The notes beneath the pieces were generated by a model that was not told the DNA's origin, made no database searches, and was given only the letters and a program-made list of their open reading frames with translations. A stretch of DNA of 64,000 bases. It comes from a virus. Position numbers and translations under genes: made by a program. The DNA is taken from positions 1 through 64,000 of the IMG/VR virus record IMGVR_UViG_3300025853_000057. The stretch is one strand, 5' to 3'. Below, piece after piece: positions 10,039 to 15,910 of this stretch (positions within the stretch are counted from its first letter, which is position 1; every line of letters begins with the position of its first letter).

Positions 10039-10063
10039 AGGGGGCTTAAACGCCCCCTTTTTT
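10039..10063 (+). terminator. Intrinsic terminator
   Basis: AGGGGGC-TTAAAC-GCCCCCT hairpin followed by T-run. Confidence 0.8.
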
Positions 10064-10066
10064 ATT

Positions 10067-11083
10067 ATGATAAATCTTAATAAGCTTGACTACGACTTAC
10101 TATCTTCAGAGCTGATATTAGAAAAAGTATCAGACTATCAAATATTTGCATATTACATACAAGGACTAGAACTAAATACATCATTTAATAGTCCTTTAAG
10201 GAATGATGATATTCCTTCTTTTAGTGTGTTTTATGCATCTAGATTGGGCAAGCTTTTGTTTAGAGATTTTGCAACTAAAGAAAAAGGTGATTGTTTTGTC
10301 TTTGTATCTAAGCTTTTTGGCTTAAACTACTATCAGAGTCTACAAAAAGTAGCTTTTGATTTTGGTTTAATAAAAGAAGGAACTAATGGTGATAGAGTAA
10401 AGAAAGAACTGCCAAAAGACAAAGAATACAAAAAATACTCTTCAACAGTACATCTAGGAATAAAAAGTATGGACTTTACACCTAAAGATTTAAGGTTTTG
10501 GTCTAGCTTTGGTATAAGCAAATCTACTTTAGAGAAATATAATGTAAGCAGTTGCTCACATATATTTATTAATGATTATATAATAAAAGTAGATAATAGC
10601 AAAAGTCCTGCTTATGCTTATCTAGAGTATAAAGATGAAAAGTATACCTACAAAATCTATCAACCTTTTGAAAAGAAAAGAAGATTTATATCCAATGTGG
10701 ATAAATCTGTATGGCAAGGATGGAGACAAATGCCTGATACAGGAGAAGTCTTAATAATTACTAAGTCCTTGAAAGATGTGATGGCTATTACTGAAGTAAG
10801 TGGGATAAATTCTGTATCTTTACAAGCAGAAACCACTGAACCTAAGCCTCACATCATTAAGCAGTTAAAACAAAGATTTAGTAAAATATACTTGCTTTAT
10901 GATAATGATTTTAACAAAGAAGTAAATAGAGGAAGAATATATGGAAAGGAAATAGCTTCTACTTTTAAAATCAAACAGATTGAAATACCTGATGAATATA
11001 AATCTAAAGACTTTTCTGATTTAGTTAAAAATCATGGAAAGCAAAAATCCCAACAAATTCTCATTAATCTTTTAAACCCTTAA
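10067..11083 (+). CDS. DNA primase (DnaG-like, TOPRIM)
   Basis: SPLRNDDIPSF..F.DFAT...GDCF.FV N-terminal domain; IITKSLKDVM and YDND TOPRIM motifs; KDFSD. Confidence 0.85.
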   Translation: MINLNKLDYDLLSSELILEKVSDYQIFAYYIQGLELNTSFNSPLRNDDIPSFSVFYASRLGKLLFRDFATKEKGDCFVFVSKLFGLNYYQSLQKVAFDFGLIKEGTNGDRVKKELPKDKEYKKYSSTVHLGIKSMDFTPKDLRFWSSFGISKSTLEKYNVSSCSHIFINDYIIKVDNSKSPAYAYLEYKDEKYTYKIYQPFEKKRRFISNVDKSVWQGWRQMPDTGEVLIITKSLKDVMAITEVSGINSVSLQAETTEPKPHIIKQLKQRFSKIYLLYDNDFNKEVNRGRIYGKEIASTFKIKQIEIPDEYKSKDFSDLVKNHGKQKSQQILINLLNP

Positions 11084-11094
11084 TCTTTAAAACT

Positions 11095-11493
11095 ATGCGT
11101 AATATTCGTGTAATCTCTCCTCAATCTACCTCTGCTAGAACTTTTGAATCTGAAGCTACTAACTGGGGTGACCTTAAAGAAGAGTTATCTGGAACCTATT
11201 CAGGTATTTCAGATATGAAAGCTATTGTTAGAGAGACTAGAAATACTCTAGAATCTGATAATGCCTCTTTACCTGAAGGTAATTTTACTGTCATTCTTAG
11301 CATGAAGAAAATTGAATCTGGTAGTGGTAATCGCACTAGATACACTGATTCTCAAATCAGAGAAATTCGTACTAAGTTGATGAATCTTTTGGAAGATATT
11401 CTAGAAGATGTTAATGGTTCTATTCCAGATGAAAGTTTATCTGAAGAAGAGCTAGAAGATTTGGAAAATCTTCGTTCTGAAGGTTTGGCTTAA
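11095..11493 (+). CDS. Putative ubiquitin-like (beta-grasp) modifier precursor; Gly76 followed by 56-aa acidic extension
   Basis: beta-beta-alpha-beta-beta-beta pattern (IRVISP/RTFES/TNWGDLKEEL/MKAIVR/TLE/FTVILS) ending in KKIESG; first gene of an E2-JAB-E1 cluster. Confidence 0.65.
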   Translation: MRNIRVISPQSTSARTFESEATNWGDLKEELSGTYSGISDMKAIVRETRNTLESDNASLPEGNFTVILSMKKIESGSGNRTRYTDSQIREIRTKLMNLLEDILEDVNGSIPDESLSEEELEDLENLRSEGLA

Positions 11494-11513
11494 TTTTCAG
11501 TACTCTTAAACCT

Positions 11514-11546
11514 AAAGAGGGTAGTCAATAGGCTACCCTCTTTTTT
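11514..11546 (+). terminator. Intrinsic terminator between Ubl and E2-like genes
   Basis: GAGGGTAGTC-AATA-GGCTACCCTC hairpin followed by TTTTTT. Confidence 0.85.
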
Positions 11547-11566
11547 ATTTTACATATTAAAAGCCT

Positions 11567-12919
11567 ATGACAGAATTAGAATATGCTTTAGAAAATCCGA
11601 AACCTATTGGAGAATTTGTTGAAGAGCACTCTTTGTTTTCTATCAAACAAGAAACATTACAAGAAGATATAACTACAAAGCTTATTCCTTTAGTTTTTAA
11701 CAAAGAAGCAGAAGAGTTTATTATATGGCAAGCTGGGACTATACACCCCTATAATAAAGAAAGAAATGATTTGCGTATTGTAAATGGTTTTTTAACAATT
11801 AATAGTCTTACAATAACTGATTGTTACATTTTACCTTTTGAAGTTGAAAAAGAGTTAAGATTTAATAGAGACCTAACAAATTTTAAGGAAGACCTCTTAA
11901 GTAGTTCTTCTCTTAAAAATGACTACAATAGACTAATAGAGATAGTAAGAGCTGCTGAAGAAATTTATGGAGAAGACAAAGTAGATTTAAAACTAGATAA
12001 TGAGGAAAATATTAGTCTAATAGTACATTACCCTCAAATAGATATAGATGATGAAAATGGTAATACAGAAACTATTTTTGACTCCTATATATGCTACCCT
12101 TTTAGCTTGAATTATGAGGCTTTAAGATTAAGAAATAAAATAGAGATGTTTTCTTCTCATGGTACTTTTGAACAAGCTGGAGCTGGTTATATACATTCTC
12201 ATGCTGCTACTAGAAGTCTTGAGAATTTCTTTTCTAAAAGAAACCTATGTCTAGGAGCTACAGATTTGCAGTGCTTAGTGGATGAGCTACATAGTACAAG
12301 TAACCTAAATGAAGTTGAAGCAGTAGCATTTGAATCTTTATTCTATCAAGTTGATGAACTTCTAGTTTGGGAATCTGAGAATGGAGGTCCTTATATTTAT
12401 TTAAGAGATTTAGGTGAGGATCTTTCAAGGTATGTATTTTTATCGACAGATGATTACTTAGATGAAGATGACTTGACTAATTTTTTACAACAGGCTTTCA
12501 AAAATATAGATATGCTGGAAGAGCCTTATAATTTAGGAACTAATGCATTTATCTATCCTTCTGTAGGTATGCTTGTTGATGCAGGTGAATCCTTTTCTTC
12601 TTTTACCAATGTTATTAACTCCTATTATAATGAATATGAAAATGAGTATTTATTAAGTAGAGAGCTGGACAATGTTGCAAATTTAGCTCTCATAGATAGT
12701 TCACATAAACCCTACTTAACTTTTAGAAATAAACCTATAAATTACGGTATTGATTATGAAAACAAATTACTGGATACAACAGCAACCCTACCCCCAAGAG
12801 AATACGTTGAAACCTTATTCAAGCACTTATCAAAGTACTTACAAGACCTTGGTGAAAGAGAAAGGATTGAAAGTACATCTCTCCCAAGAGATATTAGCGA
12901 AAATTTGGTATTTATGTAA
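11567..12919 (+). CDS. Prokaryotic E2-like (UBC-fold) conjugating-enzyme domain protein
   Basis: GYIHSH-x15-C(LG) (Cys codon 12248-12250) resembles the E2 HPN...C signature; followed by helix and WESENGGPY; lies between Ubl and JAB. Confidence 0.55.
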   Translation: MTELEYALENPKPIGEFVEEHSLFSIKQETLQEDITTKLIPLVFNKEAEEFIIWQAGTIHPYNKERNDLRIVNGFLTINSLTITDCYILPFEVEKELRFNRDLTNFKEDLLSSSSLKNDYNRLIEIVRAAEEIYGEDKVDLKLDNEENISLIVHYPQIDIDDENGNTETIFDSYICYPFSLNYEALRLRNKIEMFSSHGTFEQAGAGYIHSHAATRSLENFFSKRNLCLGATDLQCLVDELHSTSNLNEVEAVAFESLFYQVDELLVWESENGGPYIYLRDLGEDLSRYVFLSTDDYLDEDDLTNFLQQAFKNIDMLEEPYNLGTNAFIYPSVGMLVDAGESFSSFTNVINSYYNEYENEYLLSRELDNVANLALIDSSHKPYLTFRNKPINYGIDYENKLLDTTATLPPREYVETLFKHLSKYLQDLGERERIESTSLPRDISENLVFM

Positions 12920-13955
12920 AAGTATCAATGACGTAGAATGGTCAGGTATAATCTTTTGTAAAACTGAAGGACATCCTATAAATCTTGATACTTTTAAGTT
13001 AGAGCCTATAGATATTCTTCCTATGCATAAGGGAGAGCCTTCATATACAGAGTTTGAGGTAGATGAATCTATTATTGATGCTTATGATAATAACCCTGTA
13101 TTAGAAGATTGTAAAATGGGTATTATCCACTCTCATGTAGATATGAATGTATTCTTTAGTGGTACAGATACTTCTACTTTGCATAAGTACGCTGCTATGT
13201 CTAATTTCTGTATTTCCATCATTGTTAATAATGCTGGAGATGTTACAGGTAAAGTCGCTTATTTGGTAAAAAACAAAACCAAATCTTATCTTTCTGAGTA
13301 TATGAATGAAGATGGTAATTGGATTAGTTCTAAAGAAGAAGAAAATGAGGTAGAAAATAGTGTAATTGTAGAAGTACCTCTTACTTTTTCCTTTGACTTA
13401 GATAACCTATTTAATAATAGAGTAGATACCATTATTAAAAAAGCTCAGGAAGAAAAGAAAGTTGTTGGATTTGGAAAAACAAAAACTGTTACACAAAGTT
13501 CATCATATAGTAATCCTTATAACTACTTCAATAATCAAGTACCTGCTAACACTGAATATAAATACAGTAGATACGAATTACTTAATTTCATTTGTAAGCT
13601 TTTAGAAAATAATACTAACAGCCTTAATAGTGGTGTTTTAGTAGCCTTGGATAAGTTTTATAAAGAAGTTTTAGGTAAAGGTCTATGTAAAGCAGATGAT
13701 ATGGTAGATTGGTTTATTAACTCTATTGCCAGCAACCATGGAGGAAAATTCTTCCCTAGTACAGTTTCTCAAACTCAAGAAGCTGATTTTATAGGTCAGG
13801 CTTTAGATATTTTAGTAGAAGTAAGTTCAAATGATGCTATAGCAAAAGCAGATAAAGAAGATGTGCTGTCAGATTTATATGAAGCTTTAAACAGCATCTA
13901 CTATGACGATGATGAAATTCTAGACGATGACTATGATTTCACACATGTGTACTAA
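12756..13955 (+). CDS. JAB/JAMM (MPN+) metallopeptidase
   Basis: EWSG...IIHSHVDMNVFFSGTD = E-xn-HxH-x7-S-x2-D; start uncertain (ATG 12756). Confidence 0.85.
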   Translation: MKTNYWIQQQPYPQENTLKPYSSTYQSTYKTLVKEKGLKVHLSQEILAKIWYLCKSINDVEWSGIIFCKTEGHPINLDTFKLEPIDILPMHKGEPSYTEFEVDESIIDAYDNNPVLEDCKMGIIHSHVDMNVFFSGTDTSTLHKYAAMSNFCISIIVNNAGDVTGKVAYLVKNKTKSYLSEYMNEDGNWISSKEEENEVENSVIVEVPLTFSFDLDNLFNNRVDTIIKKAQEEKKVVGFGKTKTVTQSSSYSNPYNYFNNQVPANTEYKYSRYELLNFICKLLENNTNSLNSGVLVALDKFYKEVLGKGLCKADDMVDWFINSIASNHGGKFFPSTVSQTQEADFIGQALDILVEVSSNDAIAKADKEDVLSDLYEALNSIYYDDDEILDDDYDFTHVY

Positions 13956-13969
13956 ATAAATAAATAAAT

Positions 13970-14665
13970 ATGCAAAATTCTTATAACTCCCGTTTTAAGG
14001 ATGCTGCATGGTTACCTACTGCCCAGTCCCTTGATGTAACTATCGGAGGGGCTGGGGGTATAGGTTCCATTGTAGCATTTCTTATGTCCAGAATAGGACC
14101 TAGGTCTATAACTTTATATGACAACGATACAGTAAACAGGCATAATTTATCTAATCAGCTTTTTGGCAAAGAGGATATGGATAAGTCTAAAGTAGAAGCA
14201 GTAATGAACTTATGTAAAAACTACTCACGTTATTTCATTAAAGCAGTTCCAGACTTATTTACTTTGCAAACACCTTCTACTCCAGTGATGTTTAGTTGTT
14301 TTGATAATATGGAAGCTAGAGAACAAATGTTTGAAGTATTTAAACAAAACTGTGATAAACACCAAGAAGAAGGTACACCTCCAATATTTATAGATGGTAG
14401 ACTAACAGCAGAGCAGTTTTTCATATATGCAGTTACTCCAAATAGAATAGAGGATTATGAAAAAACTCTATTTCCTAGTAGTGAAGCTGCAAACTTGCCT
14501 TGTGGTTTTAAAGGTACTACCCACAATAGCTTTATGATTGGCTCTAAGATGGTAGCTTTGTTTACAAACCATTGCTTTAATATAGCTGTAGGAGAACATA
14601 TTAGGGATGTTCCTTTTAGTGTAGAAAATGAAATCTTTAACATGCTAGAAACTGTAACATTATGA
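13970..14665 (+). CDS. ThiF/MoeB/E1-family adenylating enzyme
   Basis: GAGGIGS, YDNDTVNRHNLSNQLF, KSKVEA, CFDNMEAR, FIDGR; candidate catalytic Cys in NLPCG; N-terminal SRF arginine finger. Confidence 0.9.
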   Translation: MQNSYNSRFKDAAWLPTAQSLDVTIGGAGGIGSIVAFLMSRIGPRSITLYDNDTVNRHNLSNQLFGKEDMDKSKVEAVMNLCKNYSRYFIKAVPDLFTLQTPSTPVMFSCFDNMEAREQMFEVFKQNCDKHQEEGTPPIFIDGRLTAEQFFIYAVTPNRIEDYEKTLFPSSEAANLPCGFKGTTHNSFMIGSKMVALFTNHCFNIAVGEHIRDVPFSVENEIFNMLETVTL

Positions 14666-15480
14666 TTAACATTGTACAAACTAGGAATATATATCCTCCT
14701 ACTTATAAAATCAATACTGATAGGAGTAAAGTTATTTATGGTAAAAAAATTCTAGACAGAAATCTTTTGCAAAGAAGAGTATTTCTAAATCATAGTGAAT
14801 ATAATAGTTTGCCTTCTTTAGTTATAACTCCTACTTTTTATCAAATTGGAATAAGTATAAGTATTAATGGGGGAGAACAATATACAGGAATAGCATTCTT
14901 GAAGAACCTTACAACTCTTCTTAAAGAAAACTTAAATGTCTTACTAACTCCTGACTTAGAGTTTAATAACAATTGTAAAGTACGTACTTATACTTCTACT
15001 CATCAGGTTAGGTTAGAAACCTTAGCTAATCCTTTTGATATTGTTAACAATGGTATCTGTTATGTACATGGGAGTTTACTTTACTTAGATTCATTATTAG
15101 CAGTTCCTTTAGCTGCTCTTACTATAGATAAATCTTATATGCAACTTCCTTTTATTTATTTCTTAGTAAGAGAAATATTAGGAGAGGAAAAAATGCAAGA
15201 ATTAGGTCTAGGTCTAGATGAGTTTTTAAGTATTCCAGGTCTTTTTAAATTAGAAGTATCTAACCCTCCTCTTTTAGATGAAGATTTTTTGTTAAGTAGC
15301 CAGCTAATAAAAAGCTTATGGAAAATGATAAAACATGCTCAAAAGATTGGTTTAGAAATTAAAGGCAGAGATGATATGAAAAAAGAAGACTATGTTTCAA
15401 CCATACAAAATGATATTACATTTGATGAGTTTGTTGAATATGTAAAATCTAAAGTAGAAGAGGAGGAAGTAAATGCATAA
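14662..15480 (+). CDS. Hypothetical protein translationally coupled to E1
   Basis: ATGA overlap with the E1 stop; no recognisable motif. Confidence 0.6.
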   Translation: MINIVQTRNIYPPTYKINTDRSKVIYGKKILDRNLLQRRVFLNHSEYNSLPSLVITPTFYQIGISISINGGEQYTGIAFLKNLTTLLKENLNVLLTPDLEFNNNCKVRTYTSTHQVRLETLANPFDIVNNGICYVHGSLLYLDSLLAVPLAALTIDKSYMQLPFIYFLVREILGEEKMQELGLGLDEFLSIPGLFKLEVSNPPLLDEDFLLSSQLIKSLWKMIKHAQKIGLEIKGRDDMKKEDYVSTIQNDITFDEFVEYVKSKVEEEEVNA

Positions 15481-15910
15481 ATTCTTTATACCAGGTAATG
15501 TACCTTCTCTTAAAAATTCTAAGGTAAAAACCTCAAGAGGGATTTTTCCTTCTAAAACAGTTGTAAGCTACTTAAAAGACCTGGGTATCAAAAGATACTC
15601 AGTAAGAGATAAAGTAGTAGAAGAATATGTTAGAAGGGAAAATCTCTTTAAAAAGTACTTAGCTACTTTCCCTACTGAATTAGAGTATCCTATACACATG
15701 GGATTTCATTTTATTAGGAAGTCTAAAAGAGATTTTGACTTCAATAATGCTACACAAATAATTCAGGACTTGTTAGTAGCACACAACTATATAGAAGATG
15801 ATTCTATGAGGTTTTTACTCCCTTATCCCCTACAAATTGAAGGTTTGTACTATTCCATAAATCCTAAGAACCCAGGAGTAATTTTAAAAGTTGATTATGA
15901 CAGAAGATAA
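15473..15910 (+). CDS. RusA-like Holliday junction resolvase
   Basis: IPGNVPSLKNSK...DFNNATQIIQDLLV..NYIEDDS acidic catalytic pattern. Confidence 0.75.
   Translation: MHKFFIPGNVPSLKNSKVKTSRGIFPSKTVVSYLKDLGIKRYSVRDKVVEEYVRRENLFKKYLATFPTELEYPIHMGFHFIRKSKRDFDFNNATQIIQDLLVAHNYIEDDSMRFLLPYPLQIEGLYYSINPKNPGVILKVDYDRR

Follow-up and report, generated by a model that had tools for sequence, protein, structure and literature searches.

In the DNA analysed here, positions 1 to 64,000 of the IMG/VR virus record IMGVR_UViG_3300025853_000057 (the window), which belongs to an uncultured crAss-like phage, five consecutive genes encode a ubiquitin-like protein (Ubl) precursor, a protein resembling ubiquitin-conjugating enzymes (E2s), a JAB/JAMM metallopeptidase, a minimal ubiquitin-activating-type enzyme (E1) and a fast-evolving fifth protein, ORF5. 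The present analysis suggests that this cassette specifies a phage-encoded ubiquitin-like protein-conjugation pathway, a reading to which we assign a probability of about 0.6. Specifically, conservation of the cassette across related phages, invariance of the residues that the proposed chemistry would use, and predicted folds for the Ubl and for the core of the E2-like protein together argue for such a pathway, which is weighed below against explanations that dispense with an E2, with protein conjugation, or with any joint function.

A conserved syntenic cassette

An earlier note on this DNA had read the genes as a single conjugation operon and had proposed a survey of synteny among relatives. 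That survey, which covers 32 plus 63 loci, reveals a conserved syntenic cassette and not a chance neighbourhood. The order Ubl, E2-like, JAB, E1 is identical in 32 loci, including 29 IMG/VR loci found through the E1; the full order, with ORF5, corresponds to gp79 to gp75 of crAss001 and is also found in Flavobacterium phage FpV4 and on some 85 contigs of uncultured phages, and the same gene order is annotated or detectable in bajarodcaudo virus. Independent retrieval with a degenerate DNA pattern for the W-E-S-L-E-G-G-P motif of the E2-like protein yielded 63 loci, of which 55 lie on contigs outside the first locus set, and hidden Markov models (HMMs) built from that set were applied to all of them. 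The Ubl, E2-like, JAB and E1 genes stand in order on one strand in 35 of these loci; in the other 28 the available DNA ends at or close to the place of the missing genes, and one of these loci (L091) has about 670 nt upstream and no Ubl match. It is extremely improbable that the genes are neighbours by chance or a decaying remnant without joint function: their order is constant over about 90 loci with E1 identities as low as about 35%, none of the catalytic residues varies, the open reading frames (ORFs) are intact, and in some relatives group I introns lie exactly in the JAMM H-x-H codons, a placement typical of conserved, expressed phage genes. The parts of the cassette exist, are conserved, and always travel together.

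Public annotations label the E1 as “thiamine biosynthesis protein,” and the JAB as “metalloprotease domain containing protein,” and they also use “hypothetical” for genes of the cassette. A single-protein scan with the E1 returned one 2.4-kb contig of a metagenome-assembled genome from the genome contigs and one unrelated ThiF from the plasmid collection. In the literature, of which coverage was incomplete, no description of the cassette came to light, nor any paper in which Crassvirales or crAss001 are connected with ThiF, JAB or ubiquitin.

The fifth gene, ORF5 (14662..15480, + strand), encodes 272 aa and overlaps the E1 stop by 4 nt. Each of the 26 loci that have DNA at this place shows an ORF of 190-360 aa beginning at the E1 stop. 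The ORF5 groups are joined to one another only by chains of weak pairwise similarity, leave-out HMMs do not link them, and searches of ORF5 returned no family, Atlas or PDB match and only 4 close homologues. The gene that the earlier note had called an orphan is better regarded, across the 26 loci, as the cassette's fifth member, constant in position and rapidly evolving.

The encoded proteins and their setting

The first gene (11095..11493, + strand) encodes a 132-aa putative ubiquitin-like precursor with a predicted beta-grasp fold at residues 1-70, a flexible K71-K-I-E-S-G76 end (residues 71-76; Gly76 codon at 11320-11322) and, beyond Gly76, a helical, acidic tail of 56 aa (15 D/E, 6 K/R). 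The AlphaFold2 model, based on a 19-sequence alignment (predicted local distance difference test, pLDDT, of 78), has the topology b-b-a-b-b-b, followed by disorder at residues 75-79 and then two helices. When this model was compared with the PDB by Foldseek, the top matches were all ubiquitin-family proteins (ubiquitin, SUMO, NEDD8, UBX, ISG15; probability 1.0), with TM scores of 0.6-0.73 and root-mean-square deviations of 2.1-3.3 Å. The earlier note had staked its identification of this protein on the outcome of fold prediction, and the beta-grasp it had anticipated was obtained. In sequence, the Ubl and its 19 family members match no described Ubl family in Pfam, NCBIfam or the PDB.

Gly76 is invariant and K72 nearly so among the 19 Ubl sequences, and K-x-x-[S/A]-G stands at the end of the fold in essentially all loci. 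The number of residues that follow the conserved Gly ranges from 1-6 in short natural forms (1 in L019, 3 in L027 and L012, 5 in L018) to tails of >200, up to about 210 residues, which are often basic. Because the fold ends at an invariant Gly and the tail beyond it is freely variable, the Ubl would need trimming to expose the Gly. This pattern parallels that of BubAB, in which the system's own JAB cuts right after the conserved Gly (PMC11601596).

Three of the loci with short Ubl genes carry, between that gene and the terminator, an ORF for a helical, acidic product of 39-46 aa (approximate positions L019:2773-2915, L027:3238-3360 and L012:2297-2435). These ORFs are alike only marginally, as about 1% of shuffles score equally. 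Homology between them and the acidic tail of the window's Ubl was considered and rejected as not significant against shuffles. The tail module could sometimes be fused to the Ubl and sometimes be separate.

The third gene (12756..13955, + strand; the ORF opens at 12750) encodes the JAB/JAMM metallopeptidase, which has 399 aa from ATG 12756 and 401 aa from TTG 12750; residue numbers here count from the TTG, and subtracting 2 gives the numbering from the ATG. The protein consists of a JAMM domain at about residues 40-200 and a helical C-terminal half. The full JAMM motif that the earlier note had described is present in every residue, namely E63 (12936-12938), H127-S-H129 (13128-13136), x7, S137, x2 and D140 (to 13169), and E63, H127, H129, S137 and D140 are invariant in 21 JAB sequences. 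Profile matches recur but stay below threshold. The window's JAB scores 18.4 bits with Pfam Prok-JAB, below the cut-off of 25 (E 0.002), and the same model matches 13 of 18 members of the JAB family at E up to 0.01. The PADLOC JAB model aligns with residues 34-153 over 118 of its 157 positions (E 0.002), PRTRC_A gives weak matches in 8 of the 18 members (E at best 0.002), and an AMSH-like protease matches only at E 0.37.

The JAB ORF runs in the +1 frame over the last 53-170 nt of the E2-like gene, the extent varying with the start that is used (candidates are ATG 12756, GTG 12852 and TTG 12867). Some overlap must be real, since conserved JAB residues start before the E2-like stop, and comparable overlaps of the two genes occur in most relatives.

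The JAB genes of some relatives are interrupted. Group I introns (Rfam RF00028, 59-83 bits) were found in the cassettes at L016:4827-5051, L073:3621-4074 (- strand) and L082:1246-1501. The intron in L016 falls exactly within the JAMM H-x-H codons, such that exon 1 ends ...GMIH and exon 2 restarts THHDMKAFFSGTD. Two-piece JAB genes occur also in L012, L017, L042, L059 and L061.

The product of the fourth gene (13970..14665, + strand; 231 aa) is, as judged from its sequence, a minimal ThiF/UBA5-like E1. It carries the nucleotide-binding motif GGAGGIGS at residues 26-33 (14045-14068), D112-N113 (D112 at 14303-14305), R117 and a candidate thioester residue, C178, in NLPCG (14501-14503). Pfam ThiF (PF00899) matches it with 54.8 bits against a cut-off of 28.1 (9.6e-15). 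In an alignment with Escherichia coli MoeB, the G-x-G-x-x-G is kept, and R8 pairs with R11, D51 with D62, K74 with K86, D112 with D130 and R117 with R135. The earlier note's call of a ThiF/E1 enzyme with intact nucleotide-binding motifs is thus borne out by a match above threshold and by the aligned adenylation residues. C178 presumably corresponds to C184 of ThiF, and it lies near the crossover-loop Cys of MoeB, C187, 10 residues past the L-F anchor compared with 7. Among 19 relatives with identity down to 36%, 34 positions of the E1, including C178, are invariant. Among solved structures the E1 family profile finds UBA5 best (1.3e-11), then MccB and ThiF.

The size and distribution of this E1 vary among phages. 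The crAss001 E1 (gp76, L001:5539-6696) has an N-terminal extension of ~150 aa that is absent from the window phage and from FpV4, and that of bajarodcaudo virus (L003:5842-6696) has one of ~50 aa. An E1 of the same family also occurs in jumbo phages of Xanthomonas and Erwinia, for example in PhiXhv-12 (L034, 143445-144128 of the record; family HMM E 1.8e-32). In the neighbourhoods of these jumbo-phage E1s, an 892-aa protein and small ORFs were found and no match to the Ubl, E2-like protein or JAB, such that the E1 alone is common.

The second gene (11567..12919, + strand) encodes the 450-aa E2-like protein, which comprises an N-terminal domain at residues 1-110, a predicted UBC-like core at about 110-290 and a conserved C-terminal region. 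Its candidate active site consists of Y208-I-H210-S211-H212 (H210-H212 at 12194-12202), x15 and C228 (12248-12250), followed by W268-E-S-x-x-G-x-P275 at 12368-12391. Seven residues, S211, H212, C228, G230, E269, S270 and G273, do not vary among 146 diverse representatives, and Y208, H210 and P275 hardly vary; at an E-value of at most 1e-3 the whole family takes in 3282 representative clusters. The H-S-H would occupy the place of the H-P-N of classical E2s, with the Cys 15 residues on as opposed to about 8. The model of the protein (pLDDT 80.7) contains the N-terminal domain, a long helix, a strand meander, a loop with H-S-H and Cys228, and helices. Among the structural neighbours of the core, UBC or ubiquitin E2 variant (UEV) chains make up 47 of the 50 top rows of a second look and about half of the unbiased rows; they include bacterial BubB and Cap2, and the Z-scores are middling (4.4-5.7). 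PHROGs returned matches of unknown function only, and the relatives in UniProt and BFVD are all “uncharacterized.” As profiles of E2 families give no match to it, we use the name E2-like and assign no family membership. The HSH-x15-C motif on which the earlier note had based an E2 call is there as described; the identity as an E2 is held with moderate confidence, given a UBC-like core with middling Z-scores and no profile match.

Collectively, a residue-by-residue check places each motif that had been claimed for these proteins where it was said to be. Because each of the quoted residues is invariant, or nearly so, across diverged relatives, the motifs are not chance patterns.

We also detected a terminator-like hairpin directly 3' of the Ubl gene, in the window and at most loci checked, which is newly seen here. 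In the window it occupies 11514..11553 (+ strand), inside the 73 nt that separate the Ubl gene from the E2-like gene, and consists of a 13-bp stem with 6 G-C pairs, a 4-nt loop and a T-run (ΔG -26.1 kcal/mol, z -4.1). With a strict finder, a hairpin and U-run appear in the same gap at 22 of 26 related loci; because the background is 0.24 per kb, <1 would be expected by chance in those gaps. In crAss001 and bajarodcaudo virus, RNAfold predicts a hairpin at the same place, and among loci the hairpin sequences vary while the position is constant. This arrangement suggests that the Ubl gene may close a transcription unit or precede an attenuator, and either would favour Ubl output above that of the enzymes.

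All cassette genes lie tightly packed on the + strand of a window of low GC content (about 0.3), in agreement with the co-oriented genes between primase and resolvase of the original reading and with the list of ORFs. Upstream, the DNA primase gene (10067..11083, + strand) precedes the cassette in nearly all relatives, as BLAST synteny shows; its homologues in crAss001 and FpV4 carry the annotation DNA primase/toprim. A second strong terminator-like hairpin (window 10039-10058) is found just 5' of the primase gene, and since the two hairpins thereby flank the primase and Ubl genes, both genes may share one short transcription unit. Downstream follows a conserved Holliday-junction resolvase-type endonuclease gene (15473..15910, + strand), the crAss001 homologue of which is annotated and which overlaps ORF5 by 8 nt. 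The neighbours of the cassette are genes of nucleotide and DNA metabolism.

A proposed conjugation pathway weighed against its alternatives

In the pathway that we favour, the 132-aa Ubl would be made as a precursor, and the JAMM peptidase would cut after Gly76 and remove the variable tail. The small E1, which would probably form a homodimer as ThiF, MoeB and UBA5 do, would adenylate Gly76 with ATP and may then hold the Ubl on Cys178. From there the Ubl would be passed to Cys228 of the E2-like protein, near which the upstream H-S-H would take the H-P-N position, and the E2-like protein, perhaps aided by its N- and C-terminal domains or by ORF5, would join the Ubl to a target lysine. The JAB may also reverse the modification, and the hairpin 3' of the Ubl gene would allow more tag than enzymes to be made. 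Such a pathway could serve to control phage or host proteins in the early or middle phase of infection, or to interfere with host Ubl defences. The earlier note's proposals that conjugation occurs, that it acts during replication and that it is directed at host defence or replication proteins are, at present, conjecture.

Several observations weigh against this reading. The cassette contains no ubiquitin ligase (E3), and the 450-aa protein has no E2 match in Pfam, NCBIfam, PADLOC or, with a 146-sequence profile, the PDB. In the E1, Asn62 (14153-14155) stands in place of Arg73 of MoeB, the Arg of the N-L-x-R-Q motif that is typical of MoeB, ThiF and other E1s; relatives have Asn or Gly here, and the remaining adenylation residues are all present and invariant. 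The equivalence of C178 to the catalytic Cys is 3 residues off in the alignment, and the nearest named families of the E1 are sulfur-carrier ThiF enzymes. In addition, G-[YI]-I-H-S-H is common to the E2-like protein (12185-12202, G-Y-I-H-S-H) and the JAB (13119-13136, G-I-I-H-S-H), and H210, H212, C228 and E269 of the E2-like protein could be metal ligands.

One alternative is that no E2 takes part. In its minimal form the E1 is similar to enzymes that need no E2, as is known of archaeal SAMP and of Urm1 conjugation (PMC9574740 and general background). By analogy, the E1 might conjugate the trimmed Ubl directly, in the style of archaeal SAMP/UbaA or of Urm1/Uba4, or the Ubl might bind partners only noncovalently; either way, the 450-aa protein would be a non-catalytic UEV/RWD-like scaffold or substrate adaptor. 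In structural comparison the inactive E2 folds of the UEV/RWD type (Tsg101, Fts, VPS37A, Yih1) score equal to true E2s, and no sequence link ties the 450-aa protein to E2 families. The inactive folds, however, lack the Cys, whereas Cys228, His212 and Ser211 are invariant in 146 diverse members of the family, and this invariance favours a catalytic or ligand-binding role over that of a plain scaffold. We therefore consider an E2-independent system unlikely, with a small but real chance of being correct.

The kinship of the E1 with sulfur-carrier enzymes raises a second alternative, in which the Ubl, once adenylated by the E1, would become a thiocarboxylate and serve as sulfur donor for a nucleotide, a tRNA, a DNA base or a small molecule. 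The JAB would trim the Ubl, and the 450-aa protein would insert the sulfur. Trimming by a JAB is of a known type in such pathways (CysO/Mec+, QbsE/QbsD, TtuB/TtuD), JAB-Ubl-E1 triads occur in them (Iyer et al. 2006, PMC1779556), and the location of the cassette among genes of nucleotide and DNA metabolism would suit a sulfur-transfer role. The best NCBIfam matches of the E1 are ThiS-adenylating ThiF enzymes, in line with the public label “thiamine biosynthesis protein”; however, none of these matches comes near its curated cut-off, and their coverage is limited to the nucleotide-binding half. Moreover, the Ubl ends in Ser-Gly and not Gly-Gly, and a UBC-like extra protein is not used in sulfur pathways. 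No matches to rhodanese, cysteine desulfurase (Aminotran_5), PP-loop ATPase (ATP_bind_3), ThiG or MoaE were found in the 76.5-kb record, which is ~77% complete, although the host could provide such partners. On balance, a sulfur carrier is a distinctly improbable explanation of the cassette.

The H-S-H stretch common to the E2-like protein and the JAB suggests a third alternative, that the 450-aa protein is a metal enzyme or a degenerate JAB partner (an MPN+/MPN- pair) and that the cassette only processes the Ubl or releases it and its tail. Homology between the two proteins was rejected, as hhalign aligns just the 16-column HSH stretch, with a probability of 0.8%; the two proteins may share the motif by chance or may have converged on a metal or oxyanion site. 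The model of the 450-aa protein predicts an uninterrupted strand meander after the helix, as in UBC folds, and UBC/UEV chains far outnumber MPN chains among its structural neighbours. Processing alone would also leave an intact, strictly co-inherited E1 without a task, and we regard this explanation, too, as decidedly improbable.

Relation to known systems and implications

Ubl tagging has hitherto been studied solely in cells and in bacterial defences against phages. Bacterial Ubl conjugation is known as anti-phage immunity (CBASS Cap2/Cap3, Bil), and Bub has been proposed to act likewise (PMC11601596). In presumed function the phage cassette comes closest to Bil and type I Bub. Of these systems, Bil, a bacterial anti-phage defence, comprises the Ubl BilA, the E2 BilB, the JAB peptidase BilC and the E1 BilD (PMC11601596; 10.1101/2023.09.26.559546). 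Bil resembles the phage cassette in having four separate genes in one operon, for a Gly-ending Ubl, a Cys-bearing E2 or E2-like protein, a JAB and an E1, with no E3, and differs from it in that the Bil E1 is a tandem-domain protein, whereas the phage E1 has 231 aa and one ThiF domain. In addition, Bil serves host defence, while the cassette lies in a phage replication module and has a fifth gene, and neither the phage Ubl nor the E2-like protein has a sequence match.

Type I Bub (formerly 6E.1), which consists of BubAB, BubCD and BubE (Ye et al., PMC11601596), looks like the cassette in its minimal E1, its diverged E2, its fifth protein and its JAB, which cuts after Gly as the phage JAB would. 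However, type I Bub joins the Ubl with the E2 and the JAB with the E1 in single proteins, and type II joins the E2 with the E1, whereas the phage genes are all separate, and no cassette protein matches DUF6527 (BubE) in Pfam. Bub also uses oxyesters, on a Ser in the E2 and a Tyr in the E1, without Cys, in contrast to the invariant Cys of both the phage E1 and the phage E2-like protein; in the latter, Ser211 and Ser270 are invariant beside Cys228.

In type II CBASS, Cap2 is an E1-E2 fusion that conjugates the CD-NTase itself, with no separate Ubl, and Cap3 is the JAB. The cassette contains no CD-NTase or effector gene, its neighbours being primase and resolvase, and PADLOC E1-E2 models match the phage E1 over the nucleotide-binding stretch only.

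Operon class 6d of Iyer et al., which we take to be the PRTRC system of NCBIfam, is similar in gene content, with five components that include a fast-evolving fifth and a small E1, and likewise resides on mobile elements from the same host phylum. The phage JAB and E1 families have recurrent matches only to a set of named families that includes PRTRC_A (8 of 18) and PRTRC_ThiF (19 of 19, best 1.5e-12). All PRTRC scores are, however, far below their cut-offs, with 28.6 bits for the window's E1 against the 144.75 required for PRTRC_ThiF, and neither the E2-like protein nor the Ubl is matched by PRTRC_B or PRTRC_C of NCBIfam. Class 6d differs further in gene order and context and in having a conserved His after the Cys, whereas the phage H-S-H precedes the Cys, as in classical E2s.

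UBA5 of the UBA5-UFM1 pathway, which is the minimal eukaryotic E1, ThiF and MoeB are, like the phage enzyme, single-domain E1s that carry a Cys close to where the crossover loop ends, and UBA5 is the best solved relative of the phage E1 family profile. The match nonetheless covers only the N-terminal nucleotide-binding half, and the phage E1 has none of the Zn-binding CxxC pairs. Among phage proteins, TAPI (Ubl) and TAPK (JAB plus NlpC/P60) of lambda and T1 offer a parallel, in that TAPI is a phage-encoded Ubl with a conserved C-terminal Gly and an extra C-terminal part and the adjacent JAB is predicted to cut at that Gly (PMC1779556). That pair has neither an E1 nor an E2-like protein, belongs to the tail module, and bears no sequence relation to the cassette.

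Because the cassette lacks defining features of each of Bil, Bub, CBASS and PRTRC, it is set apart from all four, and it would appear to be a distinct form of prokaryotic Ubl-E1-E2-JAB operon, situated in the replication module of lytic phages. The wider proposition, that Crassvirales-type phages, including crAss001 and FpV4, run a complete Ubl pathway of their own, made up of a precursor Ubl, a JAMM maturase, a minimal E1 and a very large E2 family not recognised before, that covalently tags host or phage proteins during infection, has in our estimate an even chance of being right. If it is true, phages too would use protein tagging, which would reverse the picture of such bacterial cascades as weapons against phages, and they may use it to regulate their own replication or host factors or to interfere with host Ubl defences. 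A putative role would then be available for an unannotated family of >3000 clusters and for genes that now carry the labels “thiamine biosynthesis protein,” “metalloprotease” and “hypothetical.” The presence of the cassette in the cultured phages crAss001 (gp75-gp79) and FpV4 makes these proposals directly testable at the bench. Furthermore, a very diverged E2-like branch would be added to the history of the ubiquitin system.

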